Positions 5,103 to 63,822 of a stretch of DNA of 64,000 nucleotides are shown here, in pieces. The notes under the pieces were generated by a model. The model did no database searches. It had not been told where the DNA came from and worked only from the letters and a program-made list of their open reading frames with translations. Where the stretch lies: NCBI GenBank assembly GCA_030390025.1, contig CM059432.1, forward strand, positions 31,064,001-31,128,000. The letters are read 5' to 3'. Origin of the DNA: Squalus acanthias (Eukaryota). Position numbers and translations under genes: made by a program. The first letter of the stretch is position 1. Every line of letters starts with the position of its first letter.

Positions 5103-5505
5103 TATAACTCACTGTAAACCCCAACCCTGCTGCCTGGCCCTCAGGTCATGAGTTGAAGCATTCTTGAAATATATTCGACTGAATTTGATAGAGAGTTGTG
5201 ACATATCTGGGCCTGTGTAAAAAGGGCATGGTTTAAAATGCTGCAAAATTTGTAATGGATATTTATTTCTACTTTGAATTCCCCAATGACTGAATGTCAG
5301 ATGGAACCCAGTCATACAAACAGGATGAAAGTCCCTTCTCACCGACAGCTGCAGGAGTTGCAAGTGAAAGGAATTCAGGATAGTTTCAATCCACCTCCTA
5401 GCGGGGGTAGGTTCACAGCACAAAACTGCCCTTAATTTAGTAGTGCTCAATCTAAATAGAGAAGTCGCACAACACCAGGTTATAGTCCAACAGTTTTATT
5501 TGAAA

Positions 5506-5542
5506 TTACGAGCTTTCGGAGCGCTGCTCCTTCGTCAGGTAA
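5506..5542 (-). ncRNA. Minimal type I hammerhead ribozyme in Penelope pseudo-LTR
   Basis: Minus strand TTAC CTGACGA A GGAGC AGC GCTCC GAAAGCTC GTAA: core CUGANGA / GAAA / UH, stem II GGAGC:GCTCC, stem I TTAC:GTAA, palindromic AGCT in place of helix III. Confidence 0.8.
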
Positions 5543-5785
5543 AGTGAGGGAATACAAATCAGATACAAAGCATATATAGACAGAGAACAATGTGTCTGCA
5601 GAGATACAATCAGTCAGGAAGGCATTACATCAAAGACACAGCAGAATACAGCTAAGACAATGAGGTGGGGTCACAGGGGGTCCAACGTGTCAAATGCTGC
5701 AGTCTGCAGTTAAGCTTTTTACTTTTTTTTTAAACTGGAAATCATATCTGTGAACAAGACAACGACGACTCTAGTCTGGATGACT

Positions 5786-7543
5786 CTACATCCTGTAGCG
5801 TGACATGAAACCAAGATCCCGGTTGAGGCCATCCTCATGGGTGCAGAACTTGGCTATCAGTTTCTGCTCGATGATTTTGCGTTGTCATGTGTCTCGAAGG
5901 CCGCCTTGGAGAACGCTAACCCACAGATCCGAGGCTGAATGTCCTTGACTGCTGAAGTGTTCCCCGACTGGGAGGTAACAATCCTGCCTGGCAATTGTTG
6001 CGCGGTGTCCGTTCATACGTTGTCTCAGTGTCTGCATGGTCTCGCCGATGTACCATGCTGCGGTGCATTCTTTCCTACAACGTATGAGGTAGACAACGTT
6101 GGCCGAGTCACATGAGTATGTACCATGTACCTGGTGGGTAGTGTCCTCACGTGTGATGATGGTATCTGTGTTGATGATCTGGCATGTCTTGCAGAGGTTG
6201 CCGTGGCAGGGTTGTGTGGTGTTGTGGTCGCTGTTCTCCTGACAGCTGGGTAATTTGCTGCGAACGATGGTACTTTTGAGGTTAGGCGGCTGCTTGAAGG
6301 CGAGTAGTGGAGGCGTGGGGATGGCCTTAGCGAGGTGTTCGTCGTCATCGCTGACATGTTGAAGGCTGCGAAGAACATGGCGTAGTTTCTCCACTCTGGG
6401 GAAGTACTGGACGACGTAGGGTACTCTGTTGGTTGTGTCCCGTGTTCGCCTTCTGAGGAGGTCTATGCGATTTTTCGCTGTGGCCCGTCGGAACTGTCGA
6501 TCGATGAGTCGAGCATCATATCCCATTCTTACGAGGGCGTCTTTCAGCATCCGTAGGTGTCCATCGCGTTCCTCCTCGTCTGAGCAGATCCTGTGTATTC
6601 GCAGGGCTTGTCCATAGGGGATGGCTTCTTTAACGTGGTTAGGGTGGAAGCTGGAGAAGTGGAGCATCGTGAGGTTGTCCGTGGGCTTGCGGTCGAGTGA
6701 AGTGCTGAGGTGTCCGTCTTTGATGGAGATTCGTGTGTCCAAGAATGAAACCGATTCTGAGGAGTAGTCCATGGTGAGTTTGATGGTGGGCTGGAACCTG
6801 TTGATGTTATCGTGTAGTCCTTTCAGTGATCCTTCGCTGTGGGTCCAAATGAAGAAAATGTCGTCGATGTATCTGGTGTACAGCGTTGGTTGGAGGTCCT
6901 GTGCAGCGAAGAAGTCTTGCTCAAACTTGTGCATGAAGATGTTGGCGTATTGGGGTGCGAATTTGGTCCCCATGGCTGTTCCGTGTGTTTGGGTAAAAAA
7001 CTGGTTGTCAAAGGTGAAGACATTGTGGTCAAGAATGAAGCGGATGAGTTGTAGGATGGCGTCTGGCGATTGGCTGTTGTTGGTGTTGAGTACTGAGGCT
7101 GTCGCAGCGATGCCGTCATCGTGGGGGATACTGGTGTAGAGTGCCGATATGTTCATCGTGGCGAGGAGTGTTCCTGGTTCAACTGGTCCATGGGTGCTGA
7201 GTTTCTGTAAGAAGTCTGTAGTGTCGCGACAGAAGCTGGGGGTTCCCTGTACGATGGGTTTCAGGATGCCCTCGACGTACCCAGAGAGGTTCTCACACAG
7301 GGTTCCGTTGCCTGATACGATAGGACGTCCGGGTGTGTTGGCTTTGTGTATCTTTGGGAGACAGTAGAAGTCTCCCACGCGGGGAGTACGTGGGATGAGA
7401 GCGCGTAGGATGCTTTGAAGGTCTGGATCGAAGGTCTTGATCAGTCTATTGAGTTGGCGGGTGTGTTCTTTGGTCGGATCTGCGGGTAACTGTCTGTATT
7501 GTTCCTGGTTGTCCAGTTGTCGGTATGCTTCTTTGCAATAGTC
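5786..7543 (-). pseudogene. Penelope RT / GIY-YIG endonuclease ORF, truncated, with premature stop at 5885-5887
   Basis: FYCLPKIHK, GTAMG, YTRYIDD, Cys linker PCHGNLCKTC, VVYLIRC..WYIGET; the second copy has CGA (Arg) where this one has TGA; N-terminal ~19 aa of ORF 5885-7600 come from flanking DNA. Confidence 0.9.
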
Positions 7544-18589: not shown

Positions 18590-18893
18590 ACTAAGGAGAA
18601 AGTGTTTCCATTGGCAGGGGGGCTGGTAACCAGAGGACACAGATTTAAGATAATTGGCAAAAGAACCAGAGGGGAGATGTGGAGATTTTTTTTTTTTACA
18701 CAGCAAGTTGTTATGATCTGGAATGCACTGCCTGAAAGGCAGATTCAGCAGTAACTTTCAAAAGGGTTGAATAAATACTTGAAAAGGACAAATTTGCTAT
18801 GGGGAAAGAACAAGCGTGTGGGACTAGGATCTTTCAAAGAGCCGGCACAGACCCGATGAGATGAATGGCCTCCTTCTGTGCTGTATGACTCTA
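18590..18893 (+). mobile_element. CR1 LINE 3' fragment
   Basis: ACCAGAGGACACAGATTTAAG...GAATGGCCTCCTTCTGTGCTGTATGACTCTAT tail. Confidence 0.85.
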
Positions 18894-18896
18894 TAT

Positions 18897-20060: not shown

Positions 20061-20462
20061 GACAACAGCCAGGCTTTTGCTGATAAGTGGCAAGTAACAT
20101 TCGCACCACACAAGTACCAGGCAATGACCATCTCCAACAAGAGAGAGGCTAACCATCTCCTCTTGATATTAAATGGCATTACCATCACTGAATCCCACTT
20201 ATTGAATTGTTATCTGCTGTATTTGTGTACATTTGGTAGAATTGGTTACATTTGTCTTTGTATTGCATTTGGTTACAGTTGTAAACATATTTAGTTAGAT
20301 TTGACTCTATTTTTGTATATTTGAACACAGTTGCTGGAATATTTACCTGGGTTTGTCTGCGTTAATGCTGTATTTAGTACAGTTGGTGGTATATTTAGAT
20401 GGAATTATCTCTGGATTTTGCTGTATTTACAATGCAATTCCAGATATATTGAGATAGTTTTA

Positions 20463-22450
20463 AGAACATAAGAAATAGGAGCAGGAGTAGGCCATTTGGC
20501 CCTTCAAGCTTGCTTTGCTATTCAATAAGATCATGGCTGATCTTCTACCTCAACTCCATCTTTCCTGCACTATCCCCATATCCCTTGATTCCCTTAATAT
20601 CCAAAAATCTAGCCATCTCTGTCTTGAATATACTCAACGACTGCCCTCCTGGGTAGAGAATTCCAAAGTTTCATAAACCTTTGCGTGAAGAAATTTCTCC
20701 TCATCTCAGTCCTAAATGGCCGACCCCTTATTCTGAGACTGTGACCCCTGGTTCTAGACTCCCCAGCCAGGGGAAAACATCTTCCCAGCATCTACCCTGT
20801 CAAACCTTGTAAGAGTTTTATATGTTTCAATGAGACCACCTCTCATTCTTCTAAATTTTAGGGACCAAAAGACTTTTCTCCTCAATTTCTCCTCATAGGA
20901 CAATCCCCCCATCCCAGGAATCAGTCTGGTGAACCTTCGTTGCACTCCCTCTAAGTCAAGTATATCCTTCTTTAGGTAAGGAGACCAAAACTGTATACAG
21001 TACTCCAGGTGTGGACTCATCAAGGCCATATATAATTGCAGTAAGACTTCTTTACTCTTATACTCCAATCCTTTTGCAATAAAGGCTAACAGACCATTTG
21101 CTTTCCAAATTGCTTGTTGTACTTGCATGTTAACTTTCAGTGATTCGTGAACAAGGACACCCAGGTCCCTCTGAATACCAACATTTCCCAATCTCTCACC
21201 ATTTTAAAAATATTCTGCTTTTCTATTTTTCCTACCAAAGTGGATAACTTCACATTTCTTCACATTATATTCCATCTGCCATGTTCTTGCCCACTCACTT
21301 AATCTGTCTATATCCATTTTTTAGCCTCTTTGCATCCTCCTCACAAATTACTTTCCCGCCTAGCTTTGTATCGTCAGCAAACTTGGATACATTATACTCG
21401 GTCCCCTCATCTAAGTCATTGATATAGATTGTAAATAGCTGAGGCCCAAGCACTGATCCTTGTGGTACTCCACTAGTTACAGCCTGCCAAAGAAAGAAAG
21501 AAAGACTTAGATTTATATAGTGCCTTTCGTGATCACTGGATGTCGCAAAGCTCTTTACAGCCAATGAAGTCATTTTGGAGTAGTCACTGTTGTAATGTGG
21601 GAAAGGCCAACCCGAAAATGACCCATTTTTTCCTACTCTCTGTTTTCTGTCCATTAAACAATCCATAATCCATGCTATTATATTACCCCCGATCCCATTA
21701 CATAGGATTACATAGGATATACAGCACAGAAAAAAGGCCATTCGACCCAACCAGTCCATGCCGGCGTTTGTGCTCCACTCGAGCCTCCTCCCGTCTTTCC
21801 TCATCTAACTCTATCAGCATAATCCTCTATTCCCTTTTCCCTCATATGCTTATCTAGCCTCCCCTTAAATGCATCTATACTATTCGCCTCAACCACTCCC
21901 TCTGGTAGCGAGTTCACATTCTCACCACTCTCTGGGTAAAGAAGTTTCTTCTGAATTCCCTATTTGATTTTTTGGTGACTATCTTATAATGATAGTTCTG
22001 CTCTTTCCCACACGTGAAATCACTCTCTCTGTGTCTACTCTATCAAAACATTTCATTAATTTTCAAGAGAAAAGAGACCCAGCCTGTTCATTCTTTCCTG
22101 ATAGGTATAACCTCCCATGAGCCCTAATTTTGTATAATAACCTTTTATGTGGCACCTTTTCAAAAGCTTTCTGAAAATCCAAATACACCACATCCACTGG
22201 TTCCCTCTTATTTACCCTGCTCGTTACAACCTCCAAAAACTCGAACAGATTTGTCAAACACAATTTCCCTTTCATATATCCGTGTTGACTCTGCCCAATC
22301 ATATTATGATTTTCTAAGTGCCATGTTACCACGCCCTTAATAATAGATTCTGGCATTTTCCCTACTACTGATGTCAGGCTAACAGGTCTATAGTTCCTTG
22401 TTTACTCTCTCCCTCCTTTCTTGAATAACGGGGTTACATTTGCTACCTTC
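20463..22450 (-). mobile_element. CR1 LINE, interrupted by a SINE tail (~21490-21600) and another CR1 3' fragment (~21699-22114)
   Basis: ORFs 20754-21191, 21295-21804 ([14 protein letters not shown]) and 22063-22356 (YLDFQKAF). Confidence 0.85.
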
Positions 22451-23365
22451 CTTCCTAAAGTGTGGTACCCAGAATTGGACACAGTACCCCAGTTGGGGCT
22501 GAACCAGTGTTTTATACAGGTTCATCATAATTGAAACACTTTTGTACTCTATACCCCTATTCATGAAGCCCAGGATCCTGTAAGCCTTTTTACCTGCTTT
22601 CTCAACCTGCCCTGCCACCTTCAACGATGTGTGCACACATACCCCCAGGTCTCTGTTTGTGCACCCCCTTCAGGATTGTACCATTTAGTTTATATGTCCT
22701 CTCCTCATTCTTTCTACCAAAATGTATCACTTCACACTTTTCTGTGTTAAATTTCATCTGCCACGTGTCTGCCCATTTCACCAGCCTGTCTATGTCCTCT
22801 TGAAGTCTATCATGCTCCTCCTCACTGTTCACTATACTTCCAAGTTTTGTGTCATCTGCAGATTTTGAAATTGTGCCCTGTACAGCCACATCCAAGTCAT
22901 TAATATATTTCAAGAAAAGCAGTGGTCCTAGAACCGACCCCTGGAGAACACCACTGTATACCTTCCTCCAGTCTGAAAAACAACCGTTCACCACTACTCT
23001 CTGTTTGTTATTACTTAGCCAATTCCGTATCCATGCTGCCACTGTCCCTTTTATTCCATGGGTTTCAACTTTGCTGGCAAGCCTATTATGTGGCACTTTG
23101 TCGAACGCCTTTTGGAAATCCATGTACACTACATCAACTGCATTACCCTCATCAACCCTCTCTGTTACCTCATCAAAGCACTCAATCAAGTTGGTTAAAC
23201 ACGATTTGCCTTTAACAAATCTGGGCTGGCTTTCCTTAATGAATCCACACTTGTCCAAGTGACTGTTAATTTTGTCCCTGATTACTGTTTCTAAAAGCTT
23301 CCCCACTACCGAGGTCAAATTGACTGGCCTGTAGTTACTAGGTTTATCCTTGCACCCTTTTCCCA
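22451..23365 (-). mobile_element. CR1 LINE RT fragment
   Basis: ORF 22602-23366 NYRPVNLTS..YMDFQKAFDKV..QGSVLGP; same subfamily as 1-312 and 58030-58910. Confidence 0.9.
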
Positions 23366-24559
23366 ACTTTTACACTCGGTTTAGGATGCACTCCGATTTA
23401 GACCACTTTGTGCAGACCACTCTTTTGTCTGTATATTTTGCTCCATTTCTGTCCAGGTACAGGTACATTTAGATGCATCTGTCTCAATGTTGATATGTTA
23501 GGATAGTTTTCTCGCAGTATTTTGCTGTATTTAGTACAGTTGCAGTATATTTAGATGGATTGATTGAATGCCTCTACAGTAACTATTGAATTAGAGCCCT
23601 GATAATAACCCATGCAATTAAAATGATATCCTTGCCATATTTTTAGAGAATTTAAAATGGCACAGATTATTGGTGGTGACGATATTGTGAAGCACAAATT
23701 CATCTGGGCCTGTTTTTGGGGGACCCGTTTTCAGGAGGGCCGACACCGGCCCGAAATTCAGCCTTGGGCCTCATTTCAATAATTTGGGCAAGCTGCCAGC
23801 ACCTGTCGCACCTTCACAGGCAGCTTGTCCATCACTGAACTTGCCTCACCCCAGTGGTCCTTAAGTAATTACCGGGGGTTGGGGGCAATGGAGGACAGCA
23901 TCATGTTGTGAAATGTTGTGGAGCCGGGAGGAGTATTCCTGCCCCAACTGGCTCCAAATGAATTTTTTTTTTTAAATGTTTTTACTTACCTTTCTGGTGT
24001 CAGCCACTAACTAGGCCGCATCCATGTCTGGAAAACCTGAGGGGGCCTACAACAGACATTAGGCCCCTCATTAAAATATGCAAGGGACCTAACGCCTGTT
24101 TTAGGCTGCCACCCTGAACACATGAAAACTGGCCTGACTAAATTTCGGGTCAGACGTTTTTCAGGCGTCCTTAGAATATCTGTCCCCGAATTTAGGCTTT
24201 GTTACTCCTGTTTTATGCCTGTAAAATGGCCGCAGCTAGATCCAATTTCTTCCAAAAAAAACTTGCATTAGAGGTTGTACGTGTAATGACACTGTGAAGA
24301 TTTTCATCATTGTTTTGCCCGTCACAAATCGGCATGAATTTTGTGACTTCCTTACAAAATGTTGTTACAGGAGGATCTTTAACACATCAGAAAACCCTGA
24401 AGGCTTTTGTTTGTTATGGGAGTGTGGGCGATCAAACTATGATCTATCTCTGGGCCGATTAACTATGGCAGTTCTTCAGTGGGCGAATTACCCGAGTACA
24501 ATACATTTGAAGTTTGATAAATAAGTTCACAGTCACCTACTAACTGACTGGAATTAAAG

Positions 24560-31920: not shown

Positions 31921-33730
31921 AGAACTAGCAAGGGGACATGCCATATTAGATTTAGTAATGAGTAATGAGCCAGATTTAGTTAACTGCCTAACATGCTCGA
32001 GTTTAAAGTAGCGTTTGAAAGGGTGAAACGGAAAGCAGCTACTCGGATTCTAGATTTAAGTAAGGCCGACTTCAATGCAATAAGACAGAGACTGTCCACA
32101 GTAAACTGGGCAAATCTGTTAATGAGTAAAACAACAGAAAATCGGTGGGAGGTGTTCAAAAAAGAATTTAATGTGATACAGAACCAGTTGATACCCCTCA
32201 GGGGCAAGAGCTCTATTTGCCAAAAAAAACAGCTATGGATGTCTAAAGAGTTAAGAGACAACATAAAACTAAAAGAAAAAGCTTACAAAAATGGAAAAAA
32301 TAGCACGGATCCTGGTGAATGGGAAAGAGACAAAGAACAACAAAGGGTGACAAAGCAAATAGTAAGAGCTACAAAAAGGGATTATGAAAAGAAACTTGCA
32401 AGGGATATCAAAATCAACACTAATTTTTTTTACAACAATATTAGGAAAAAGAGGGCAGGGGATGTTATTTATACGGACTTCCAGAAGGCATTTGGTAAAG
32501 TCCCTCATAAGAGATTGTTGGCTAAAGTTGAAGCCCATGGAATTGAGGGCATATTATTGACCTAGTTAGGAAATTGACTGAGCGGCAGGAGACAGAGAGT
32601 AGGGATAATGGGCAGGTACTCTAATTGGCAGGATGTGACTAGTGGTGTCCCGCAAGGATCTGTGTTGGGGCCTCAACTAGTCACCGTATTTATTAATGAC
32701 TTGGATGATGGGATAGAAAGCCACATATCCAAATTTGCCGATGACACAAAGATAAACAGTATTGTAAGCAGTGTAGATGGAAGCATAAAATTACAAAGAG
32801 ATATTGATAGATTAAGCGAATGGGAAAAACTGTGGCAAATGGATTTCAATGATCTATGTACCTGGACCCCTAAGTCTCTTTGGACCTCCACTGGTAAATG
32901 TGAGGTCATCCACTCTGGACCAAAAAAAGATAGAACAGGGTACTTTCTAAATGGTGAAAAGCTAAAAACAGTGGAGGTCCAAAGAGACATAGGGGTCCAG
33001 GTACATAGATCATTACAATCTATAATGATCTATGTACAGGGACACCTATGTCTCTTTGGGGGTCCAGAAAATAATCAAAAAGGCTAATGGAATGCTGGCC
33101 TTTATATCTAGAGGACTAGAAGACAAGGGGGTAGGAGTCATGCTTCAGCTATACAAAGCCCTTGTTAGACCACACCTGGAGTATTGTGAGCAGTTCTGGG
33201 TACCACACCTTAGGAAGGATATATTGGCCTTGTTGGGAGTGCAGCGTAGGTTTACCAGAATGATACCCGGACTCCAAAGGTTAAATTATGAGGAGAGATT
33301 ACACAAACTAGGGTTGCATTCCCTGGAATTTAGAAGGTTAAGGGGTGATTAGATCAAAGTTTTCAAGATATTAAGGGAAACAGATAGGGTAGATAGAGAG
33401 AAACTATTTCTGCTGGTTGGGGAGTCTAGGACTAGGGGGGCAGTCTAAAAATTAGAGCCAGACCTTTCAGGACTGAAATTAGGAAACACTTCTACACACA
33501 AAGGGTGGTAGATGTTGGGAACTCTCTTCCGCAAATGGCAATTGATGCTAGATCAATTGTTAATTTAAAATCTGAGATTGATAGATTTTTGTTAATCAAA
33601 GGTATTAAGGGATATGGGGCAAAGGCAGGTATACGGAGTTAGGTCGCAGATCAGCCATGATCTCATTGAATGGTGGAACAGGCTCGAGGGGTAAATAGTC
33701 TACTCCTGTTCCTATTTTCCAGTGTTCCTA
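31921..33730 (+). mobile_element. CR1 LINE, internally deleted and rearranged, nested in the Harbinger
   Basis: [39 protein letters not shown] and CR1 3' tail. Confidence 0.9.
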
Positions 33731-36300: not shown

Positions 36301-38794
36301 ATTTTTCCCTCTTTCTTCCCCAACCAGTTCAATGATCTGCTGCAGGCAGAATGCACCTCCCCTTTAAGATGTGCAGACTGCCTTTAAGTAGTGCAGGCTA
36401 GCTTTAATTGGTGCTAGCCTCGCACAAACTTGGGCCCCCTGCTGAGCGTTCAGCCCAATGCTGGGCTGAACGCCACAATCATGCCAATCAGCAGACAGCA
36501 TGAAGTTCGCGTGCTGCCTGCAGTCCACCGAACGGGCGCGGTTTGCTAGCGCATCACGATCCCCGTCCCAATTTCGGTGGCAAACCAATTTCTGGGCCAG
36601 CATATTGCAGGGGCACATTGCCCTCTGTGCCCAAACTCCCAATATGCATACTCCGTAATTATTAATCATGGGAGTTCTGCGTAACTGTAAAAGATGAGAC
36701 TCGATTAGTACAACAAGTTCACTGAAGGTTAAAATCGTGACAGTGCCAAAATCATGAGCTGTTAAACTTTCCTGGTATTTTAAAAATCCAGATTTGGGGA
36801 GAAGCAAATTCAAAAATGTGGAGAAAAGGAGAGTTGATGGAGTTGAGGTACAGACCAGCCATGATCTAATAGGATGGTGGAAAAGACTGAATGGGCTATT
36901 CCAGGTCCTATGTTCCAAATCAGAAGTTTATGGGTTCAAGTCCCACTGCAGCACTTGAGCATACAATCCAGGCTGGCACTTCAATGTAATACTGAGAATA
37001 CTGTGTCTCGGCAGACTGCCAAAAATGGCTCCAAAAGTTATTCCCAGTTGCTGTAAATGGTACTTGGATTTTCCATACACCTCAGTCTCACAAACTCCTC
37101 ACTTCTGCCTGTCTCATCTAATCCTGGCAGCAGCTGTACCTTATAATTCAGTGTCTGCCTTACCCCTTGTGTACTGTGAGCGTAAAAGCAGGAAATTCAG
37201 GGGTGCAGTGCCATTGGCCCTTATTATAATATATCGTAATGAAATAAAATATCGTCATTCGGGACTCACAACATGGATTGCGAAAAGGGCCAAATTGCAT
37301 TAGGAAACTCGGGGTGTGGGGACGGATTTTGGGTGTAAATCTGGAGGAAATAGGTACCATGCCATTTTGCTGTCCAAAATAAAAAGAGTTCCAAAGTTTG
37401 CACAGAAAAATGCCAAAGATGACGTGGAAATTCAGCACCAATCTATCTTTGATGGCATTGACTGAGGGAAGAGTGCTGACCAGGGTGTCCTAGTCTTTTT
37501 CGAATAGTGCTAAGGGATTTTTTACATCCAACTGAACAGGCAAAAGGGCCTCAGTTTAGCACTTCGTCCAAAATTCTACATGCCTGGCAATACACCACTC
37601 CCTCAGTGCTGCATTGAAGTGCCAGCCTGGATTATATGCTCAGATCTTGCAGTGGAGCCTTTTCCACCAATCTATTAGATCATGGCTGCTCTGCACCTCA
37701 ACTCTATTTATCCGCCTTTTGTCCCTATCCCTTGATGTCCTTACCCAACAGAAATCTGTTGATCTCAGTCTTGAAAACTTCAATTCAGGTGGAAGCACTA
37801 CAAACTGACAGAAGCTGACATAATTCTGCATGAAAAAGAGAGCAGAGCATGAATTATTTGAACTGCAAGTTTCAGAAATAACTCTTAAGTAGGTAAGCTG
37901 AAAGTGGTTAAGCTACTCATTCCATATCTACTAATGCTGTGTGGGCTAATGCCTGCCAATGAGTTTGTCACTTCTTGACTAGACAGTTGACAGAGCAGTG
38001 CTTATATAGACTCTCAACTATTTAAAGCTGTGGTACCTCTACAATAAATTGTTATAATTTGAAAATTTTAGAGCAGCAAAGTGTGAGTTTGTGTTGTGTG
38101 TGTGTGTGTGTTGTTGTGTTAACATCCAGGGTCAATTAGCCTGCCAACACTCGAGGGTAAATCTTATGATTGCTCGTTTCTGGCATGGAGCCTCACATAT
38201 CAGGACTCACACATGAGATCGCTGCGATTTTCTACCCATTAAAATTAATGAACTGGAAATCTTGAAGAGCGTGCCCAAGATTTCCCGATAATCGCTCCTC
38301 TCATTGAGGCCCTGCATCAGAAGGACGAATTTTGTAAACTTTATCCTTCCCTTTCTCGGCCCACACTTGAAGAATGCCATTTAGACAAGGCACCTTTGGG
38401 AAACTGGAGGAAAAGGCAACCATTGGAATAAGGATAGAGCATTTAAACCATTTAGCCCTTTTCCTTCTGCCGACCATGCCCCATTTGTCATCTCATGGAC
38501 TCTTTCTAACATTTTTTAAACTCCTAAGGACAGATTCTGCAAAGGAGTCAAATCTCCGGAAAACAATCGAATTTTACACACAAGGCCGATCCCAAGTGTT
38601 CGAGGTCTGAGTTGAAAGGAAAGACTGAAAAAACATGTTTTCAGCCTGTAAAGGAAGCATCTTAGAGGTGACCTTATAGAGATATTTAAGATAGTTAAAG
38701 GAATGAAAAAGGTAAATCTGAAATATTATTTTTAATTAAATTACACAAGTAAGACAAGGGGACATGGTTTTAGACTAATTAAAGGAAAATTTAA

Positions 38795-39008
38795 AATAAA
38801 AACAGAAAATGCTGGAAATACTCAGCAGGTCAGACAACATCTGTGGAGAGAGAAACAGAGTTAACGTTTCAGGTTGATGACCTTCAATCATTGACCTGAA
38901 ACGTTAACTCTGTTTCTCTCTCCACAGATGCTGTCTGACCTGCTGAGTATTTCCAGCATTTTCTGTTTTTATTTCAGATTTCCAGCATCTGCAGTATTTT
39001 ACTTTTAT
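38795..39008. mobile_element. 214-bp hairpin-forming non-autonomous retro-insertion, probably derived from Penelope-type termini; 17-bp TSD
   Basis: TSD ATTAAAGGAAAATTTAA (38778-38794, 39009-39025); arms ~38794-38880 and ~38888-38974; GACCTGAAACGTTAAC in both arms; inserted in an old CR1 fragment (~38660-39110). Confidence 0.8.
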
Positions 39009-39309
39009 ATTAAAGGAAAATTTAAGATTGATATCAGGAATCTCGTTCTTCATACAAAGAGTTAACACATGGGATAGAATAGTGGAGGAAAAAAACCCTG
39101 GAATCATTAAGTATGCCTTAAGTAGCCGAGGAGGAATTTGCCAGCGTTTTACTTGAAATTGGTGCGTGTTTTCGCGGAAGAATTTAGCATTAGTACTGGT
39201 TGAGGGCGGATGGTGCACAAGGTTGCACTCTCTAATGACAGGGTGAACATGGATAGGCCCAACGGTCTATTTCTTTTTGTGTTTGTTTGTTATGGGTTTA
39301 GGGACTTTA

Positions 39310-40360: not shown

Positions 40361-41756
40361 ACACCCCCCCCCGCCCCCCCGAACCCCCCGAGGGAGGCTG
40401 TAGCAATTGAGCCCCCTTTATTTGCAATCACTCATCCTAAATTACTTTATTCTCCAGCGGCCGTGTGCTCTACCTCCAATGAGACGGTGACTGGTTGTCC
40501 ATCATCAGCTATATACAAAATAGAATTTAGATTTAACTTTGACACACGCTCAGCAAAGCTTATTTGACATTATGGACAACTGAAAGTCTTATTCAATAGA
40601 AAATTGTACTTAACTGCATATGGGTCACTGAATTGGGACCTTGTAGAGCTGTAAAGGTTATTTGTACTGACGGAAATAGCCTACAGGCATTCGGCTTGAT
40701 GCATTGTGAAGTGCGCCATTGATCTACCACCATTGTTTTTTATACTAGCTTTTATACTTTTATATTAGCTACTGACTTTAAACGAATACTATGATGCTTT
40801 CCCTCATTTCTGTGGAGAATTTTTTTCTCTCTCCCCTGCCTACTAATGGAAGGGCACCTCCACAGGTGCTAGCTTCTAGTATGGCATCCAGATTGCAACT
40901 CGTCATATGTGAGCCTTGACAGTAAGCATCAGCACACACAGCTCAATCTAATCCCGTCCTATCCTGAGATTTACTCTTTCCAGAAGGAGATGCTGGATGG
41001 CAATTAAGGGTGAGAAACCTGACTGAATTATAAATCGAGTGGCTTCTATAAAGGGCGGGTGATCCACTCTGCCAAGTTAGTACCCAGGTGGTGAAATTGA
41101 AAATTACCCATTTGCGATCTTTATACACTAGTTTGCCATATTGCTACAAGGAGAAAACTGTGGAAATCTTCCGAGCAGTAACATGCTGATGCCAATCATT
41201 GTACCTTGGCTACCGTGGCTCTTTGACACTCAGGAGCCCGAGAATCACTGCCTTCTTCAATGGACTGTCACACTCCTCTGTTGTAGTAGAGTTTGAAATG
41301 TTCTCAAAGCATTAATTAATTTAAGCTCTACTATAAAGTGCAGTGATCTATGAAGAGCAGTCTACTGCGTGAAATAGAAGCAGTTTAATCCTGATAAACA
41401 TGCATTCTCAGAGAAAATTCTGCTTAGCTCAAGATTTCTTCATTGCTTTTGAGAAAAATTAAGAAAGTCGATTTTTTTTTACCTCTACCTAGTTGTCACT
41501 TGCAAAGTGAACAAGTCCACACTGGGCTAAGTGAAGGGCCAAGGACAAAGGTTGAAATGAGTGGAAGAGAAGATTTGTTTTGGGTGGTTGCGCAAAATGG
41601 GCGAAAGCGAATTGGCCGTTTCTTTTGCGTTCCTTCTGATTTTCTTATGGAAAAGAAAATCGGGCGGAGTGCGAAAGGGGTTGCCGATTCTCTGTCGCCC
41701 ATTTTTCTGAAGAAATTATACATCGATGAGGCAAACCAGGTAGAAGTGTCAGCCTT

Positions 41757-42233: not shown

Positions 42234-42319
42234 GAAGTGTGTACAGAGAATGTACTGGAAATGGAACATGGGCCTCTAGAATCAATTACTCCCACTGTGA
42301 GCCCATCTTAGAGGAGAAG
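42234..42319 (+). CDS. CRHR2: Internal coding exon of a corticotropin-releasing hormone receptor (class B GPCR extracellular domain), CRHR2-like
   Basis: Polypyrimidine tract + CAG acceptor (tttgttttgttttgtttttacag) and AAG/GTTAGT donor; 86 nt, phase 1 start, translates (x)[28 protein letters not shown], matching the recalled CRHR2 segment AYRECLENGTWASKINYSQCEPILDDK better than CRHR1 ([23 protein letters not shown]). Not in the ORF track. No neighbouring exons recognised in the window. Confidence 0.9.
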
Positions 42320-43288: not shown

Positions 43289-44638
43289 GGGGATTATTTT
43301 GGTGACAGGGTGAAGACAGACACTAAATGGGAGCTGTGCTAATAAGACACGCCTGTTTGAAAGTTTGGTTATAGCATATAATTTTAGTCCCAATTGCTGA
43401 TTACCACAATTTGAATTTGCCTGGATGTGCTAAATCAGACACCTGCAGATTTAGCACTCAAGCACTGATTAGACGCAATTGTCATGAAGCAGTATATGTG
43501 GGCTCCATGCACTCACTTCCACTGAGGGTGTGGAGTGTGCTGGCTGACACACAGCAGCACGTTTCAGGATGGCTCAGGGACCGAGTGAGAGGGCGCACAG
43601 GTCCTTGTACGTGGCATGGAGGTCCTGGTGGAGGAGATCCAGAGGATGAGAGGTGTCCTGTACCTGCAGGGGGGAAGGATTCCACCTCGCCCTCCTGTCC
43701 CTTTCTCCTCCAGTAGCTAGTGCTGCTCTGCCTGGCCTCATGTCCTCCTCCCATTCCTCCTGCAGGTCGACCCCTAGCAAGATGCCGATGACCAAGCACT
43801 CCCTTTCTCCTGGTGACTCCTATAAGGTGTCCAATAAGGTGGAGTAGCACAGCACTTACTCTTTTTGGGTGAGGTCCTCAGAAAATTTCCAGAACAAATC
43901 TTGATAGAGTGTTGGTGAAGTCTTGACAAAGTGTCCCAGAAAGTCTGCTGATGTGTTTCAAAAGTCCTCTTCAAACCTCCAGCAGCAAGTGACCAGTCCA
44001 GGTTGAGCGTCCTGAATCCGGCAACCTCGGGACCGAGGCCGAGCCGGTTTTCGTGTTTTTCCGGACTTCGGAACGTGTTTCTGATGTCCAAAGTCTGGAA
44101 ATATCGCAACCTGGGCTCGGGCGTTTCCGGACTTCGGACATCAGAAACACGTTCCGAGTCCAGAAATGTCTGGGCCCAGGTTGCGGTTTGACAGGGTGTC
44201 CGGATTCCGGAACATTTTACGGATTCCGGACGACCCTGCCACCAATCGTCCCGGAGTCCGGATTCCGGAACATTCCGGATTCCGGAACTCCGGATTTTGG
44301 ATGCTTAACCTGTAATGGGTAATATACCTTTAAGTAGCTCTGGCAATCCTCTGCAACAACTTGTTTACTCTAATCAGCTGGTCGATGTTGGGAGAGGGCG
44401 TTAGGTTAAGCACTATCCACCAAAATGCTGTGCAACCTCCTTAATGAGCGCTAGCAGGCAATTTAAGTGGCAATCAGCCCCTTAACGATCCTCCGGGCAG
44501 CCGTTCCTAGCGCAAGCCTTACCAAGGTGGTGTCTAGCGCAAAACGCGGGCTAAACCGACGTTTCAGCTTAAGACCCCATTTTGTCCACCTCGGAGGCTC
44601 TTTAGTGCCCAAAGTATCCGGGGGGGAAAATCACCCCC
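43289..44638. mobile_element. Internally deleted Harbinger-like element
   Basis: Imperfect TIR GGGG(A)TTATTTT / AAAATCACCCCC, candidate TSD AAG. Confidence 0.55.
43999..44312. mobile_element. Tc1/mariner-pogo (Tigger-like) MITE with TCCGGA-rich interior
   Basis: TIR CAGGTTGAGCGTCCTGAATCCGG / CCGGATTTTGGATGCTTAACCTG followed by TA; left TA site altered (TC). Confidence 0.75.
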
Positions 44639-48285: not shown

Positions 48286-49967
48286 GCCGTGAGAACAGCA
48301 CCAGAAAATTTACAGGAAAACCGACAAGGAAATACGCTGAAACAAAGGGAAAAAATAATCTATGTTACACAGAGCACAGTGACAGTGATGTGATTTAAGA
48401 ATTCTAAGTTATCCTAAGTTATGCCATTTTAAGCTTCGAATCAGGGAACACTTCAGAGAGTTATTATAACAGTTTTCCCATAATACTTCATTACACGCCA
48501 AGCCTATACACAGATCAGACAGTGTAGCATCACTTAAAGGCAGAATTAGTGTTCACCCATTGCTCTACAACTGACAGTTTCTAAATTTCATTATCTGCTT
48601 GAGTGGGTTTTTCATTATAATGAATCAAACTGAAAAAGAGAACATTGAGTTTTTATCATATCTGGTTAGCTAGGCTTGAACAGTACATCTGAGCATATGT
48701 TGGCATTCCCACTGCTGCAGCTAGGCAGTTGTACTTTATATCCTACATTACAACAGTGACTGTATTGGCTGTAAAGTGCTTTGGGACGTCCTGTGGTTGT
48801 GATAGATAGAAACATAGAAACATAGAACAGTACAGCACAGTACAGGCCCTTCGGCCCTCGATGTTGTGCCGAGCATTGTCCGAGACCAAGATCAAGCTAT
48901 CACACTCCCTATCACTCTGGTGTGCTCCATGTGCTTATCCAATAACCGCTTGAAAGTTCCTAAAGTGTCCGACTCTACTATCACAGCAGGCAGTCCATTC
49001 CACACCCCAACCACTCTCTGAGTAAAGAATCTACCTCGGACATCCCTTCTATATCTCCCCCCATGCACCTTATAGTTATGCCCCCTTGTAACAGCTGCCT
49101 CTACCCGAGGAAATAGTCTCTGAACATCCACTCTATCTATCCCCCTCATCATCTTATAAACCTCTATTAAGTCGCCTCTCATCCTCCTCCGCTCTAAAGA
49201 GAAAAGCCCCAACTCCCTCAATCTTTCCTCATAAGACCTCCCCCCCAAACCAGGCATCATCCTGGTAAATCTCCTTTGCACTCTTTCCAATGCTTCCACG
49301 TCCTTCCTATAGTGAGGTGACCAGAACTGCACACAATATTCCAAATGTGGTCTCACCAAGGTCCTGTACAGTTGCAGCATAACCTCACGGTTCTTAAACT
49401 CAAACCCTCTGTTAATAAACGCCAACACACCATAGGCCTTCTTTACTGCTCTATCCACTTGAGTGGCAACCTTCAGAGATCTGTGGATATGAACCCCCAG
49501 ATCCCTCTGCTCCTCCACGTTCCTCAGAACCCTGCCGTTGACCCTGTAATCCTTATTCAAATTTGCCCTACCAAAATGAATCACCTCGCACTTATCAGGG
49601 TTAAATTCCATCTGCCATTTTTCGGCCCAGCTCTGCATCCTATCAATGTCTCTTTGCAGCCTACAATAGCCCTCCACCTCATCCACTGCTCCACCAATCT
49701 TGGTGTCATCAGCAAATTTACTGATCCACCCTTCAGTCCCCTCCTCCAAGTCATTGATAAAAATCACAAACAGCAGAGGACCCAGCACCGACCCCTGTGG
49801 CACACCGCTGGTAACTGGTCTCCAGTCCGAAAATGTTCCATCCACCACCACCCTCTGCCTTCTATGAGATATGTGGTCATGATGCGGAGATGCCGGTGTT
49901 GGACTGGGGTGGACAAAATTGAGAGGTCGCACAACACCAGGTTATAGTCCAACAGTTTTATTTGAAA

Positions 49968-50009
49968 TCACAAGCTTTCGGAGCTATCGATTGCTCCTTC
50001 CTCAGGTGA
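49968..50009 (-). ncRNA. Minimal hammerhead ribozyme motif in the inverted pseudo-LTR
   Basis: Reverse complement of 52045-52086. Confidence 0.72.
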
Positions 50010-50374
50010 AGTAAATTAGATACAGAATCGCCAAAGCATATATAGATAGAGAACAAAGCATGTGTACCTTACAATTGCAGACCACTAAATTAAATCATCC
50101 TGACTATCTGCCGAGGTGTGATAAAGTTAATCAAGTCAGCCAGGCAGGTACCACATCAAAGACATAGCAAGATACAACTGAGACAATGAGGTGTAGTCGC
50201 AGGGGTTCTAACGTGTCAAAAGCTGCCGTCTGTATGTAAAACGAAAAGCTTTAAAATTTTTACTTTTTTACTGGGAAAATTTTTACTTTTTTACTGGGAA
50301 TCACATCTGTGAACAAGCCAACGACGACTCGAGTCCGGATCACGTCATGTAGTCATGTATCGTGACATAAACCC

Positions 50375-51714
50375 CCCACGATGACGGCATCGCTGCAACA
50401 GCCTCAGTACTCAACATCAACAACAGCCAATCTCCAGACGCCATCCTACAACTCATCCGCTTCATCCTTGACCACAATGTCTTCACCTTCGACAACCATT
50501 TTTTTACCCAAACACACGGAACAGCCATGGGGACCAAATTCGCACCCCAATACGCCAACATCTTCATGCACAAGTTCGAGCAAGACTTCTTCGCTGCACA
50601 GGACCTCCAGCCAACGCTGTACACCAGATACATCGACGACATTTTCTTCCTTTGGACCCATGGCGAAGGATCACTGAAAAGACTACACGATAACATAAAC
50701 AAGTTCCATCCCACCATCAAACTCACCATGGACTACTCCTCAGAATCGGTCTCATTCCTGGACACACGAATCTCCATCAAAGACGGACACCTCAGCACTT
50801 CACTCTACCGCAAGCCCACGGACAACCTCACGATGCTCCACTTCTCCAGCTTCCACCCTAACCATGTTAAAGAAGCCATCCCCTATGGACAAGCCCTGCG
50901 AATACACAGGATCTGCTCAGACGAGGAGGAACGCGATGGACACCTATGGACGCTGAAAAATGCCCTCGTAAGAACGGGATATGACGTTCGACTCATCGAT
51001 CGACAGTTCCGACGGGCCACAGCGAAAAATCGCATAGACCTCCTCAGAAGGCAAACACGGGACACAACCAACAGGGTACCCTACGTCGTCCAGTACTTCC
51101 CCGGAGCGGAGAAACTACGCCATGTTCTTCGCAGCCTTCAACATGTCATCGATGACGACAAACACCTCGCTAAGGCCATCCCCACGCCTCCACTACTTGC
51201 CTTCAAACAGCCGCCTAACCTCAGAAGTACCATCGTTCGCAGCAAATTACCCAGCTTTCAGGATAACAGCGACCACGACACCACACAACCCTGCCATGGC
51301 AAACTCTGCAAGACATGCCAGATCATCAACACAGATACCACCATCACACGTGAGGACACTACCCACCAGGTACATGGTACATACTCATGTGACTCGGCCA
51401 ACGTTGTCTACCTCATACGTTGCAGGAAAGAATGCACCGCGGCATGGTACATCGGCGAGACCATGCAGACACTGAGACAACGTATGAACGAGCACCGCGC
51501 AACAATCGCCAGGCAGGATTGTTACCTCCCAGTCGGGGAACACTTCAGCAGTCAAGGACATTCAGCCTCGGATCTGCGGGTAAGCGTTCTCCAAGGCAAC
51601 CTTAGAAACACACGACAACGCAAAATCATCGAGCAGAAACTGATAGCCAAGTTCCGCACTCATGAAGACGGTCTCAACCGGGATCTTGGGTTTATGTCAC
51701 GATACATGACGTGA
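50375..51714 (+). pseudogene. 5'-truncated but uninterrupted Penelope RT / GIY-YIG ORF
   Basis: PHDDGI..GTAMG..YIDD..CHGKLCKTC..VVYLIRC..WYIGET..EDGLN; near-identical protein to 5786-7543. Confidence 0.9.
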
Positions 51715-52044
51715 TCCGGACTCGAGTCGTCGTTGGCTTGTTCACAGATGTGATTCCCAGTAAAAAAGTAAAAATTTTCCCAGTAAAAAAGTAAAAATTT
51801 TAAAGCTTTTCGTTTTACATACAGACGGCAGCTTTTGACACATTAGAACCCCTGCGACTACACCTCATTGTCTCAGTTGTATCTTGCTATGTCTTTGATG
51901 TGGTACCTTCCTGGCTGACTTGATTAACTTTATCACACCTCGGCAGATAGTCAGGATGATTTAATTTAGTGGTCTGCAATTGTAAGGTACACATGCTTTG
52001 TTCTCTATCTATATATGCTTTGGCGATTCTGTATCTAATTTACT

Positions 52045-52086
52045 TCACCTGAGGAAGGAGCAATCGATAGCTCCGAAAGCTTGTGA
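52045..52086 (+). ncRNA. Minimal hammerhead ribozyme motif in the 3' pseudo-LTR
   Basis: TCAC CTGAGGA A GGAGC AATCGATA GCTCC GAAAGCTT GTGA. Confidence 0.75.
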
Positions 52087-53198
52087 TTTCAAATAAAACT
52101 GTTGGACTATAACCTGGTGTTGTGCGACCTCTCAATTCTATGAGATAGCCAGTTACTTATCCAATCGGCCAAATTTCCCTCTATCCCACAACTCCTTACT
52201 TTCTTCATGAGCCGACCATGGGGAACCTTATCAAACGCCTTACTAAATGCAATTTCTTTCTTTCTTAAAGTATGAAAATTAAACCGTGGTAGAAGAACAA
52301 GCTACAATTGGGTTGAGAAAGAGACTAGTCAAGTTCCAGGTTTAGAAATGCATCAAGGTAATTTGATGCAAGGTTGGATGGGTGGGACAAATCGATCATT
52401 GGTCTACTCCTGCCTGAATCTCTTACGATGCTTCAATGTAACATGTACCAGTGCATTAAGAAGATATTGACCTAATATATAACTAGTAAATTGTATGAAA
52501 AATGTAGGGGATTAGGATTCAAAAGATAAAGGGCTGCCATAAGTGCAAGATGGTAGAGCAAGCTTGATGACTGAATGGCCTGCTCCAGTTCCTATGTTCC
52601 TATTCCTGATCATTTTTCATATAATTATCACCTCAACCTACTGTGAAGTTATATTTAATAGTGAAAAAATAATACTTACATTTACATAGTGCGTTAGCTT
52701 AAAGTGCTTCACATTCTGTGCTGTAAACTTTCATGAGTCTATTGTGATTAGTTTTGGATTGCTCTAGCAAATGAATGGGACAGACACAATGGCCTCCTGT
52801 GTGTCAACAAGGTCGTACAAGGACTTTATTTCAGTATCCAGAAGGTTGTGGATTTGATCCCAGTATAAGGAATGACTGACACTCCAGTGAAGTACAAAAG
52901 GAGTGTTGTATTATTGGAAGTGCTGCCCTTTGAATAAGATGTTGACATAGAATCATAGGCCCCGATAGGGTGGGGAGGGGGGCGGTCCGGTAGCGCCAGA
53001 AGTAAGTGAAGCACATCTGCAGTGGCTCTTTAACTCACCTTATTATAATTTTACTTCCGGGTTTCCCATCCAATTTGCGGCAGCGGGCATGATGTGGACC
53101 AACATGACGCAATTTCAATTCCAGTATTTAAAGGGACACTCCAATCATGCAAGTTGAAGGAGTTTGGAGTTCGGTAGAAAAGAGAAGCAGGTGGCACA

Positions 53199-55750: not shown

Positions 55751-56418
55751 AGGTAGTGCAGGAGTCCCCGGAGTGCATCGCGCTCTTCAACCAGTATTCT
55801 GTTCTGAGTACTGGTGAGGGCGATGGTTCCTCTGGGGAGTAGAGCCAGAGCCAAGTCCATGGCACCACGGGTGGCTCAGCTGTACAGGGGGGGAGGAGGA
55901 AGATAGGGAAAACAATAGTGGTAGGAGATTCGATAGTTAGGGGAGCAGACAGGCGTTTCTGCAGCAGCAGACGTGAGTCCAGGATGGTATGTTTCCTCCC
56001 TGGTGCCAGGTTCAAGGACGTCACCGAGCGGCTGCAGAACATTCTGAGGGGGGAGGGTGAACAGCCAGAGGTCGTGCTCCATATCGGTACCAACGACATA
56101 GATAGAAAGAGGGATCAGGTCCTGCAGGCAGATTTCAGGGAGCTGGGAAAGAGATTAAAAAGCAGGACCTCAAAGGTAGTCATCTCTGGATTACTCCTGG
56201 TGCCATGTGCGAGTGAGTATAGAAATAGGAGAATAGAGCAGATGAAAGCATGGCTGGAGAGGTGGTGCAGGAGGGAGGGCTTCAGATTCCTAGGGAATTG
56301 GGGCCGGTTCTGGGGGATGTGGGACTTGCACAGGCCGGACGGGTTGCACCTCAACAGAGCCGGTACCAATACTCTCGCAGGGAGGTTTGCTAGTGCTGTT
56401 GCGGAGGGTTTAAACTAA
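55751..56418 (+). pseudogene. CR1 ORF1 SGNH esterase domain (5'-truncated)
   Basis: VGDSIV (block I), PGA, HIGTND (block III), DGLH (block V). Confidence 0.88.
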
Positions 56419-59400
56419 GTTGGCAGGGGGATGGGCACCAGGATGTACCATTAGAAAGGAGAAACAAAGGGCACAAAGGATTGGGAGAGACGGATAGCAC
56501 TAAAGTAAGAAATAGTAAGGTATTAGGTGGGGTCAGACTAAGAGAGAACACAGGGTGGTCTAAGATAGATTTACAGTATATGAATGTGAACGCACGAAGC
56601 ATAGTCAATAAAGTTGGTGAGCTGCAGGCGCAAATAGCCACATGGGAATATGATGTCATGGCAATAACGGAAACCTGGCTCAAAAAAGGGCAGGATTGGG
56701 TATTAAATATTCCTGGATATAAGGTGTTCAGGAAAGATAGGGAAGGAATGCTAGGAGGTGGGGTGGCAGTATTGGTTAAGGAGAATGTTACCGTGCTGGA
56801 GAGAGAGGATGTCCTGGAGGGGTCAAGGACAAAATCTATATGGCTAGAGTTAAGAAATTATAGAGGTACCATTACACTACTAGGTGTATTCTATAGGCCA
56901 CCAACTAGTGGGAAAAATATGGAGGAGCAAATTTGCAGAGAAATTACAGAGAGATGCAAGAACTATAGAGTAGTGATAATGGGGGACTTCAACTATCCTA
57001 ATATAGACTGGGAATAAATAGTGTAAAGGGCAGAGAGGGGGAAGAATTTCTGACGTGTGTTCAGGAGAACTTTCTGGATCAGTATGTTTCCGGCCCAACG
57101 AGGAAGGATACATTGCTGGATCTGGTTCTGGGTAATAAGGTAGGCCAAGTGGAGCAAGTGTCAGTAGGTGAACATTTAGGGATCAGTGATCATAGTATCA
57201 TAAGGTTTAGATTAGCTATGGAAAAGGACAGGGAGCAATCTAGAGTAAAAATACTTAATTGGAGGAAGGCCAATTTCAGTGGGATGAGAACGGATCTGGC
57301 CTGTGTAAATTGGAATCAAAGATTGGCAGACAAAACTGTGATAGAACAATGGGCTGCCTTTAAAGAGTTCGGGTACAGTCGAGATACATTCCTACTAGGG
57401 GGAAAGGCAGAGCAACTAAAGTCAGAACTCCCTGGATGACGAAAGAGATAGAGAGTAAGATAAAGCAGAAAAAGAGCGTGTATGACAGATGTCAGGTCGA
57501 GAATACATCCGAGAATCAGGCCAAATATAGAAAGTTCAGAGGAGAAGTGAAAAAGGAAATAAGAGGGGCAAAGAGAGGGTAAGAGAATAGAATGGCAGCT
57601 AACGTAAAAGGTAATCCAAAAGTCTTCTATAGGCATATAAATAGTAAACGGGTAGTAAGAGGAGGGGTAGGCCGATTAGGGACCAAAAAGGAGACCTACG
57701 CATGGAGGCAGAGGGTATGGCTGAGGTGCTAAATGAGTACTTTGCATCTGTCTTCACCGAGGAAGAAGATGCTGCCATAGACATAGTGAAGGAGGGGGTT
57801 GAGGAGATACTGGATGGGATAAAAATTGATAAAGAGGAGGTACGAGAAAGGCTGGCTGTACTTAAAGTAGATAAGTCACCAGGACCAGATGGGATGCATC
57901 CTAGGACCCTGAGCGAAGTGAAGGAAGAAATCGCGGAGGTACTGGCCATAATCTTCCAATCCTCCTTAGAGACGGGGTGGTGCCAGAGGACTGGAGAATT
58001 GCAAATGTTACACCATGTTCAAAAAAGGGTGTAAAGATAAACCCAGCAACTACAGGCTAGTGGGGAAGCTTTTAGAAACAATAATCCAGGACATAATTAA
58101 CAGTCACTGCACAAGTGTGGATCAATTAAGGAAAGCCAACATGGATTTTTTAAAGGCAAATCGTGGTTAACCAACTTGATCGAGTTTTTGATGAGGTAAC
58201 AGAGAGGGTTGATGTGGGCAATGCGGTTGACGTGGTGTACATGGATTTCCAAAAGGCGTTCGACAAAGTGCCACATAATAGGCTTGCCGGCAAAGTTGAA
58301 GCCCATGGAATAAAAGGGACAGTGGCAGCATGGATACGAAATTGGCTAAGTGACAGGAAACAGAGAGTAGTGGTGAACGGTTGTTTTTCAGACTAGTGGA
58401 AGATATACAGTGGTGTTCCCCAGAGGCCAGTTCTAGGACCAATGCTTTTCTTGATATATATTAGTGACTTGGATGTGGGTGCACAGGGCACAATTTCAAA
58501 ATTTGCAGATGAAACAAGACTTGGAAGTATAGTGAACAGTGAGGAGGATAGTGATAGATTTCAAGAGGACATAGACAGGCTGGTGGAATGGGCGGACACA
58601 TGGCAGATGAAATTTAATGCAGAAAAGTGTGAAATGATGCATTTTGGTAGAATTAATGAAAGAGAGGAAATATAAACTAAAGGGTACAATCCTAAAGGGG
58701 GTGCATGAACAGAGAGACCTAGGGGTATATGTACACAAATTGTTGAAGGTGGCAGGGCAGGTTGAGAAAGCAGGTAAAAAAGCTTACGGGATCCTGGGCT
58801 GCATGAATAGAGGTATTGAGTACAAAAGCGTGGAAATTATGATGAACCTGTATAAAACACTGGTTCGGCCTCAACTGGAGTAATGTGTCCAATTCTGGGC
58901 ACCACACTTTAGGAAGGATGTGAAGCCCTTAGAGAGGGTGCAGAAAAGATTTACGAGAATGATTCCAGGGATGAGGGACTTCAGTTATGTGGATAGACTG
59001 GAGAAGCTGGGGTTGTTCTCCTTAGAGCAGAGAAGATTGAGAGGAGATTTGGTAGAGGTATTCAAAATCATGAGGGGTCTGGACAGAGTAGATAGAGAGA
59101 AACTGTTCCCATTGGCAGAAGGGTCGCATACTAGAGGACACAGATTTAAGGTAATTGGCAGAAGAACCAAAGACGACATGAGGAAAAACTTTTTTACTCA
59201 TCGAGTGGTTAGGATCTGGAATGCAATGCCTGAAAGGGTGGTGGAGGCAGACTCAATCACAGGTTTCAAAACGGAGTTGGATAAGTACCTGAAGGAAAAA
59301 AAATTGCAGGGCTACGGGGAAAGGGCGGGGGAGTGGGACTAGCTGAAGTGCTCTTGCAGAGAGCTGGCATGGGCTCGATGGGCCAAATGGCCTTCTTCCG

Positions 59401-63696: not shown

Positions 63697-63822
63697 ATAT
63701 TAAAGCAAAATACTGCGGATGCTGGAAATCTGAAATAAAAACAGAAAATGCTGGAGATACTCAGCAGGTCAGGCAGCATCTGTGGAGAGAGAAAAACAAA
63801 GTTAATGTTTCAGGTCGATGGC
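63697..63822 (-). mobile_element. Single arm of the same family as the 38795-39008 hairpin element
   Basis: Near reverse complement of 38888-39008. Confidence 0.8.

Follow-up and report, generated by a model that had tools for sequence, protein, structure and literature searches.

How a retroelement comes to carry an inverted copy of its own 3' end at the front of a new insertion is a question raised by a Penelope-like element (PLE) of Squalus acanthias. The element occupies positions 49860-52147 of a 64,000-nucleotide stretch of contig CM059432.1 (assembly GCA_030390025.1, positions 31,064,001 to 31,128,000 of the forward strand), which we refer to as the window and in which all coordinates are given. 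It consists of two pieces in head-to-head arrangement, a 503-nt 3' end in inverted orientation and a sense copy truncated at its 5' end, both enclosed by one 12-bp target-site duplication (TSD). On balance, we favour the view that this arrangement arose in one retrotransposition event of an endonuclease-positive (EN+) element of the Penelope/Poseidon type by dual target priming, with two cDNAs joined at the dinucleotide CC. An initial annotation had described a young Penelope insertion with a single TSD, near-identical ribozyme-bearing arms and a one-sided extension; this outline holds, with revisions in detail given below. The insertion is made up of the following features, in which ORF stands for open reading frame, pLTR for pseudo-long terminal repeat and RT for reverse transcriptase:

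49860..49871, plus strand: left TSD (12 bp), within the RT region of a CR1-like long interspersed nuclear element (LINE) of the minus strand; empty-site contig in run X6
49872..49916, minus strand: 45-nt tail of the inverted arm, comprising the Penelope ORF leader and the first three codons (ATG at 49880-49878)
49917..50374, minus strand: inverted arm, comprising the last 8 ORF codons, the stop codon and the pLTR
49968..50009, minus strand: putative minimal hammerhead motif of the inverted arm, a descriptor match
50253..50298, no strand assigned: 23-bp tandem duplication in the inverted arm, also in the sense arm
50344..50359, no strand assigned: 8-nt tandem duplication, in the inverted arm only, 15 nt from the junction
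50373..50374, no strand assigned: head-to-head inversion junction, a 2-nt microhomology (CC) inside a run of six C (50372-50377)
50373..51714, plus strand: stop-free, 5'-truncated ORF, with the C-terminal half of the RT (YIDD) and a GIY-YIG-type endonuclease (VVY..YIG)
51688..52137, plus strand: sense arm, comprising the ORF end and the pLTR, without tail; its final TT is shared with the TSD
51754..51799, no strand assigned: 23-bp tandem duplication in the sense arm, also in the inverted arm
52045..52086, plus strand: putative minimal hammerhead motif of the sense arm, a descriptor match with a predicted cut after UU at 52082
52136..52147, plus strand: right TSD, an exact 12-bp repeat

The sequence flanking the insertion, TTCTATGAGATA, is found at 49860-49871 and 52136-52147 and at no further place in the window on either strand, and the chance of such a 12-bp match is p about 1e-7 per fixed place. 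We regard it as a true target duplication because the minus-strand CR1-like RT frame, which the insertion interrupts, reads continuously across it (..WISNWLSHR at the right, SHRRQRVVVDG.. at the left) and because a sequencing contig joins the two flanks. This contig belongs to a set of Logan contigs from four runs (X1, X5, X6 and X7; X6 is RNA by our guess, and X7 stems from another organism) that were aligned to 49450-51686. Found in run X6, it passes from 49588-49871 directly into the right flank at 52148 and beyond; given its depth of 428, it represents a multi-copy CR1 family contig and not necessarily an orthologous empty allele. No second TSD is present at the inversion junction, and one TSD thus surrounds the whole unit. 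The initial annotation had named arms from different subfamilies with separate TSDs as a finding that would speak against it; the missing second TSD and the close similarity of the arms instead point to a single insertion event.

The two arms are separated by only two substitutions (50212/51842 and 50145/51909) and the 8-nt duplication, with 433/435 identical positions across the main block, in line with what had been seen initially. Their differences can be polarized with an older copy of the family in the window:

5460..7543, minus strand: older related copy, without inverted arm or tail, with its own 12-bp TSD (5448-5459 and 7544-7555)

By this comparison, each arm carries one derived substitution. 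The older copy, whose end lies about 5 nt or less from that of the young sense copy, shows 87% identity to the young arms over the aligned pLTR columns (with 123 gap columns), and it is relative to this copy that the youth of the insertion is borne out. The 23-bp duplication is absent from the older copy; the term private, applied to it previously, holds against this one comparison copy only.

The inverted arm continues for 45 nt (or 47, with the TT common to arm and TSD assigned to the target) beyond the end of the sense arm, a length matching the earlier estimate. This tail reaches nine bases into the ORF (leader plus MTT). Its translation, LSTPVQHRHLRIMTT, is identical in 9/11 aligned residues to the shark homologue P0122, which goes on as IDTTNCRL.. 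into the PLE N-terminus. P0122 was one of the 4 proteins found among 1530 candidates in an N-terminal homologue search with P0048, while the search with P0005 returned only P0005 itself among 559 candidates. Since the tail is made up of the ORF leader and start codons, the inverted arm was copied from a junction between pLTR and ORF, as in a tandem or partial-tandem source; since it is missing from the sense arm, its origin is the template rather than the sense cDNA that was inserted. No fold signal was seen for the tail alone (z 0.49) or together with its upstream sequence (z -0.06).

The junction brings together sequences 1.3 kb apart that have CC as their sole common letters, and it does not form a short palindrome. 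The inverted arm contributes three C to the run at 50372-77 and the sense ORF five, as judged from the older copy and from a loose end of the family at 50373 in X6. With six C present, the overlap is therefore CC, and the three-nucleotide microhomology (CCC) proposed in the initial annotation is rejected.

We propose that the GIY-YIG endonuclease would nick the two target strands 12 nt apart, the stagger preserved in the TSD. The template would be a tandem or partial-tandem transcript in which a pLTR is followed by the ORF start, an order that can be read directly in the inverted arm. The bottom-strand 3'-OH would then prime at a proximal internal site, where 2 nt could pair (AA:UU), and be extended by about 1.76 kb into the RT domain, and the top-strand 3'-OH would prime 45 nt further downstream and be extended by about 0.5 kb. 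Joining of the two cDNA 3' ends via the CC seen at the junction, followed by fill-in, would yield head-to-head arms and one TSD. These steps are suggested by the biochemistry of an anole element (Frangieh 2024, PMC11167929): in vitro, both target strands are cleaved and extended, two adjacent internal RT start sites bound the tail, and a dimer is predicted. The initial annotation had likewise proposed that both nicks primed at two internal positions of the same source RNA. Dual internal priming remains the best explanation and matches the anole results; the variants common to both arms establish a shared source locus or subfamily but not a shared molecule. We consider it about even whether a single RNA was used, through the two pLTR copies of a tandem transcript or by strand displacement on one pLTR, or two RNAs.

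The single TSD, the near-identical arms and the template-derived tail all speak for dual priming, as do a second inserted palindrome of another family (38778-39025), which is likewise enclosed by a TSD and tailed on one side, and the differing joints found elsewhere. The family is abundant, with 18462-23439 contigs aligned in X5 and X1. Among the 15 joints listed (of 85), 6 link the arm region with the sense ORF within a single strand; no two share their position pair, and one was recovered from X1 as well as X5. The same data contain five more position pairs, whose kind is not given. Because these joints differ in position, each insertion appears to form its arms afresh. In addition, 5 of the 24 loose ends listed (of 1583) fall at 49874-49879 in X5, X6 and X7, with 7-59 contigs each and a low agreement of 0.37-0.52, as expected if many copies stop at the tail end in different flanks.

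Several points weigh against dual priming. In the anole system, start-site use was the same on either strand, and the sites lie 111-118 nt into the ORF (PMC11167929), whereas the distal end of the shark element lies at +2 to +9. The six joints have short sides (21-27 letters), are represented by one contig per run and, in 4/6 cases, have intervening letters that are not known; repeats can produce such joints. A contig bridging 50374 was not among the 32 of 48231 pieces listed, and no loose end at the proximal site (49917-49922) was among the 24 listed, so that this site rests on the two window copies. Moreover, the literature has favoured other routes, namely self-priming (Arkhipova 2013, PMC3846280) and endonuclease resolution of an intermediate (Craig 2021, PMC8557442). 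PMC8557442 still describes the origin of inverted copies as undefined, and PMC11167929 does not settle it.

These published routes come together in the main alternative. Here, cDNA synthesis would begin at the tail end, and at CC the cDNA would either fold back or change template; self-copying would turn it into a palindrome, which the endonuclease then resolves asymmetrically, removing the tail from one arm before integration. Such a course would directly account for the near-identical arms and, by slippage during the template switch, for the 8-nt duplication so close to the junction, and the tail has been attributed to resolution of this kind (PMC8557442). In its plain form, acting on the target-primed sense cDNA, it cannot give the tail, which is missing there, and we reject that form; the remaining version requires an extra trimming step, whereas PMC11167929 accounts for the tail by RT start sites without trimming. 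The long distance between the joined sequences and the lack of a short palindrome also count against fold-back, and we consider it unlikely as the origin of this insertion.

Still less probable, in our view, is an inversion already present in the source locus and copied as a whole via read-through RNA or DNA duplication. PLEs are able to mobilise whatever lies between their pLTRs (PMC3846280), and a common source would fit the derived variants shared by both arms. However, the listed joints all differ from one another and from that at 50374, and the insert ends within 7 nt of the common tail end of the family rather than at an arbitrary place. Two independent, opposite insertions at one spot, or arms from different subfamilies homogenised by gene conversion, seem very improbable: the abundance of the family would favour chance encounters of this sort, but one TSD surrounds both pieces, none lies at the junction, and the two substitutions between the arms contrast with the 87% identity to the neighbouring copy. 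We judge an assembly artefact, whether a fold-back chimera or a collapsed repeat, to be equally improbable. The missing bridging contig would be consistent with it, as would the window letters 49667 and 50987, which have no supporting depth in X1 or X5; the runs contain at most 0.77 of the sampled words, and contigs drop rare variants. A fold-back chimera would, however, yield identical arms and no TSD, whereas the arms here are unequal and show three differences, the exact 12-bp TSD preserves the CR1 frame, the tail keeps the register of the ORF start, and joints of this kind occur elsewhere.

A more speculative extension is that the one-tailed asymmetry is obligate. A dimer of the Penelope protein might bind one RNA, with one subunit at each internal start site and each extending one target strand; the trailing subunit would displace the first cDNA, and every inverted insertion would receive exactly one tailed arm, usually the shorter one. 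Both inverted insertions found in the window (2/2) are tailed on one side only. At 49860-52147 the tailed arm is the shorter one; at 38778-39025 the arms are about equal apart from the tail. A single locus cannot establish such a rule, and we regard it as doubtful for now. The literature searched, which left subscription papers mostly outside, contained no explicit statement connecting the one-sided tail of inverted insertions with the two start sites seen in vitro, and a term search of the available part of a bioRxiv preprint (10.64898/2026.07.22.740005) gave nothing on inverted copies or tails. If true, the dimer rule would connect the in vitro two-site, both-strand result with the long-unexplained inverted architecture.

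The insertion at 38778-39025 belongs to a different family. It measures 214 bp, is palindromic and has a 17-nt direct repeat (38778-38794 and 39009-39025), part of which may be microhomology. Its arms (38787-38880 and 38888-38981) match at 95%, and one of them alone extends further, by about 30 nt. A solo copy at 63697-63820 (minus strand) has the longer end in common with it, and a fragment lies at 4332-4395. Resemblance suggests a mini Penelope-type insertion; an ORF linked to it was not observed.

Two observations concern the target site itself. The left flank at 49852-49859 resembles the proximal end of the element at 52128-52135, with CCTCT in common and then three mismatches before the TSD, which may reflect chance or annealing between template and target. 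Furthermore, all four inferred nicks of the 49860-52147 and 5448-7555 insertions lie between two purines (n=4, post hoc, with positions blurred by microhomology), whereas an ATT nick preference is reported for the anole element. A joint from 49870 to 49915, which passes over the 44-nt tail, was recovered in X1 (depth 1962) and in X7, from another organism (depth 148); its sides measure 24-25 letters, and the letters between them are not given. Either a tailless CR1-Penelope junction present in many copies at this target position or an effect of the alignment could explain it.

In its general shape, the insertion is a clean example of a known structure and not a new system. Published accounts of the typical Penelope structure include an inverted pLTR next to the element, a TSD that encloses the complete insert, and a tail with which one of the inverted pLTRs ends (PMC3846280, PMC8557442, PMC8969392); the initial annotation had likewise stated that inverted pLTRs and a short tail are frequent. 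All EN+ PLE features that can be checked in sequence are present: a PLE-type RT, a C-terminal GIY-YIG domain in the same ORF, a pLTR derived from a truncated second copy, a tail at one end, a hammerhead motif in the pLTR and a 12-bp TSD in both window copies. These features uphold the initial identification as Penelope-like, while the assignment to the Penelope/Poseidon clade, which lacks the extra Cys-rich domain of Neptune-type elements, follows from resemblance to published descriptions.

The closest architectural parallels are Pen2a_Av and Pen2_Av of Adineta vaga and EN+ PLEs in general, which likewise have an inverted, 5'-truncated pLTR head-to-head at the 5' end, one TSD, a one-end tail and an extension of pLTR plus tail into the first ORF codons (PMC3846280, PMC8557442). 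The shark insertion differs in its TSD (12 bp instead of the 9-10 bp of the Adineta vaga elements; PMC3846280), in its tail (45 nt instead of the 30-40 published for PLEs), in its junction, which shares only CC and lacks a palindrome or 15-bp overlap, and in the absence of a direct 5' pLTR, owing to the truncation of the sense copy within the RT. PAc, the Poseidon element of Anolis carolinensis, also combines an RT with a C-terminal GIY-YIG domain, has a hammerhead close to where pLTR and ORF meet, has its ends within the RNA a short way downstream of the pLTR and has its tail between two end positions; its hammerhead overlaps the start codon, whereas the cut site predicted for the shark motif lies about 90 nt upstream of the ATG (PMC11167929). 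The main text of that paper does not treat inverted copies.

A further precedent is twin priming of L1, as reportedly proposed by Ostertag and Kazazian in 2001, in which a second nick is said to prime internally and two cDNAs are joined by microhomology within one TSD. In L1, the inverted part is reported to be upstream sequence of the same RNA molecule, without overlap, and the first primer to anneal to poly(A). In the shark insertion, by contrast, both pieces contain the same 450 nt, both starts are internal, and neither end has poly(A). An inverted arm that duplicates the 3' end fits L1-type twin priming only with an RNA containing two pLTRs, a structure permitted but not proven by the tail at the ORF start.

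The sense copy has an open frame of 447 aa with RT and GIY-YIG regions. In the truncated frame, the RVT_1 match (E 2.2e-5) is below the Pfam cut-off; YIDD and QxxGTAMG are conserved in the alignment with homologues. When the frame of the older copy was used as query, 871/8000 scored candidates had E<=1e-50, with shark proteins as top matches; the closest named proteins, both from sharks, are 90% and 85% identical to it. The endonuclease residues (VVY..YIG, R and H) are conserved as well, and the region aligns with P0025 and P0046. Both of these carry PF01541, the GIY-YIG domain. A direct Pfam search with the window protein gave no GIY-YIG match, and a PDB sequence search of the ORF returned 1 weak match (E 0.32). 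The copy at 49860-52147 cannot be autonomous because the N-terminal half of its ORF is missing. An exact 23-nt pattern from the pLTR end was found at 0 loci in viral contigs and 0 in metagenome contigs; a metagenome protein scan gave 1 locus among 68 candidate stretches, a 28% match to the endonuclease only, and was not used.

The arms had also been described as ribozyme-bearing, and each indeed contains a motif that we classify as a putative minimal type-I hammerhead. The descriptor has 3 matches in the window, all of them in Penelope ends, compared with 0 in 10 random sequences of 64 kb. Both stems, I and II, fold, with a z of only -1.7, and Rfam gave 0 matches at E<=5; the assignment therefore leans on the conserved core. 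Like the minimal hammerhead ribozymes (min-HHR) of metazoan PLEs (PMC4209133), the motif has a CUGANGA core, one unpaired base before stem II, G10.1-C11.1, GAAA, a palindromic 15.2-16.2 (GC) and a 4-bp stem I, the latter with a C-G to U-A change between young and older copies (UCAC/GUGA vs UUAC/GUAA). It departs from them in a cut triplet that ends in UU in the young copy (UC in the older one), in a stem II of 5 bp with an 8-nt loop and in the lack of an Rfam match. Pairs of closely spaced hammerhead motifs on opposite strands are described in PMC4209133. The two motifs of the insertion are on opposite strands, so that no transcript contains more than one in the active orientation. Minimal hammerheads cleave themselves as a dimer or with protein help, and a dimer formed in cis by these two is rejected because of their opposite strands. 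Pairing of the sense hammerhead with its perfect complement in the other arm is predicted at -111 kcal/mol, as opposed to -13 kcal/mol for its own fold. The hammerhead is a feature of the family and probably silent here, since the opposite arm is predicted to pair far more strongly.

The wider setting of the insertion is indicated by one exon upstream of it:

42234..42319, plus strand: CRHR2-like exon, E 8.5e-12 to CRF receptor 2, boundaries from AG/GT in the sequence

By its position relative to this exon, the insertion is likely to be intronic in a CRHR2-like gene. No next CRHR exon was found up to 64000, as 0/134 downstream non-repeat frames (at least 28 aa, at most half repeat) matched the receptor family. 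In a plus-strand pre-mRNA, the arms could form a duplex, predicted at 448 bp and -841 kcal/mol, that would bury the sole sense-oriented hammerhead. Such a near-perfect stem of about 450 bp in the presumed intron could serve as a substrate for editing or small-RNA production, and would be a by-product of the insertion. The contigs contain 16, 16, 16 and 15 A>G places in X1, X5, X6 and X7, respectively, but as contigs of a multi-copy family they are uninformative on A-to-I editing either way. As a locus, the insertion has little weight, being one more Penelope insertion of standard inverted shape. Its use is that of a clean specimen: for a shark family of high copy number, it pins down where the two ends lie, where the ORF starts, how far the nicks are staggered and where the junction falls. 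Tabulating many such shark insertions could decide between dual priming and fold-back.

The window also contains other inverted and duplicated sequences. An inverted repeat of about 140 bp (about 90%; 4631-4770 and 5302-5447) surrounds a LINE fragment, and its right arm stops at the TSD of the Penelope copy at 5460-7543. Further local palindromes or inverted duplications, all short, lie at 32839-33066, 44068-44157, 17198-17350 and 41594-41705. A CR1-type LINE is represented by its 5' part at 55843-57014 (plus strand), which includes an APE endonuclease as well as a GDSL-esterase domain in ORF1, and a short tandem duplication of about 40 bp is located at the edge of a LINE fragment (7880-7960).

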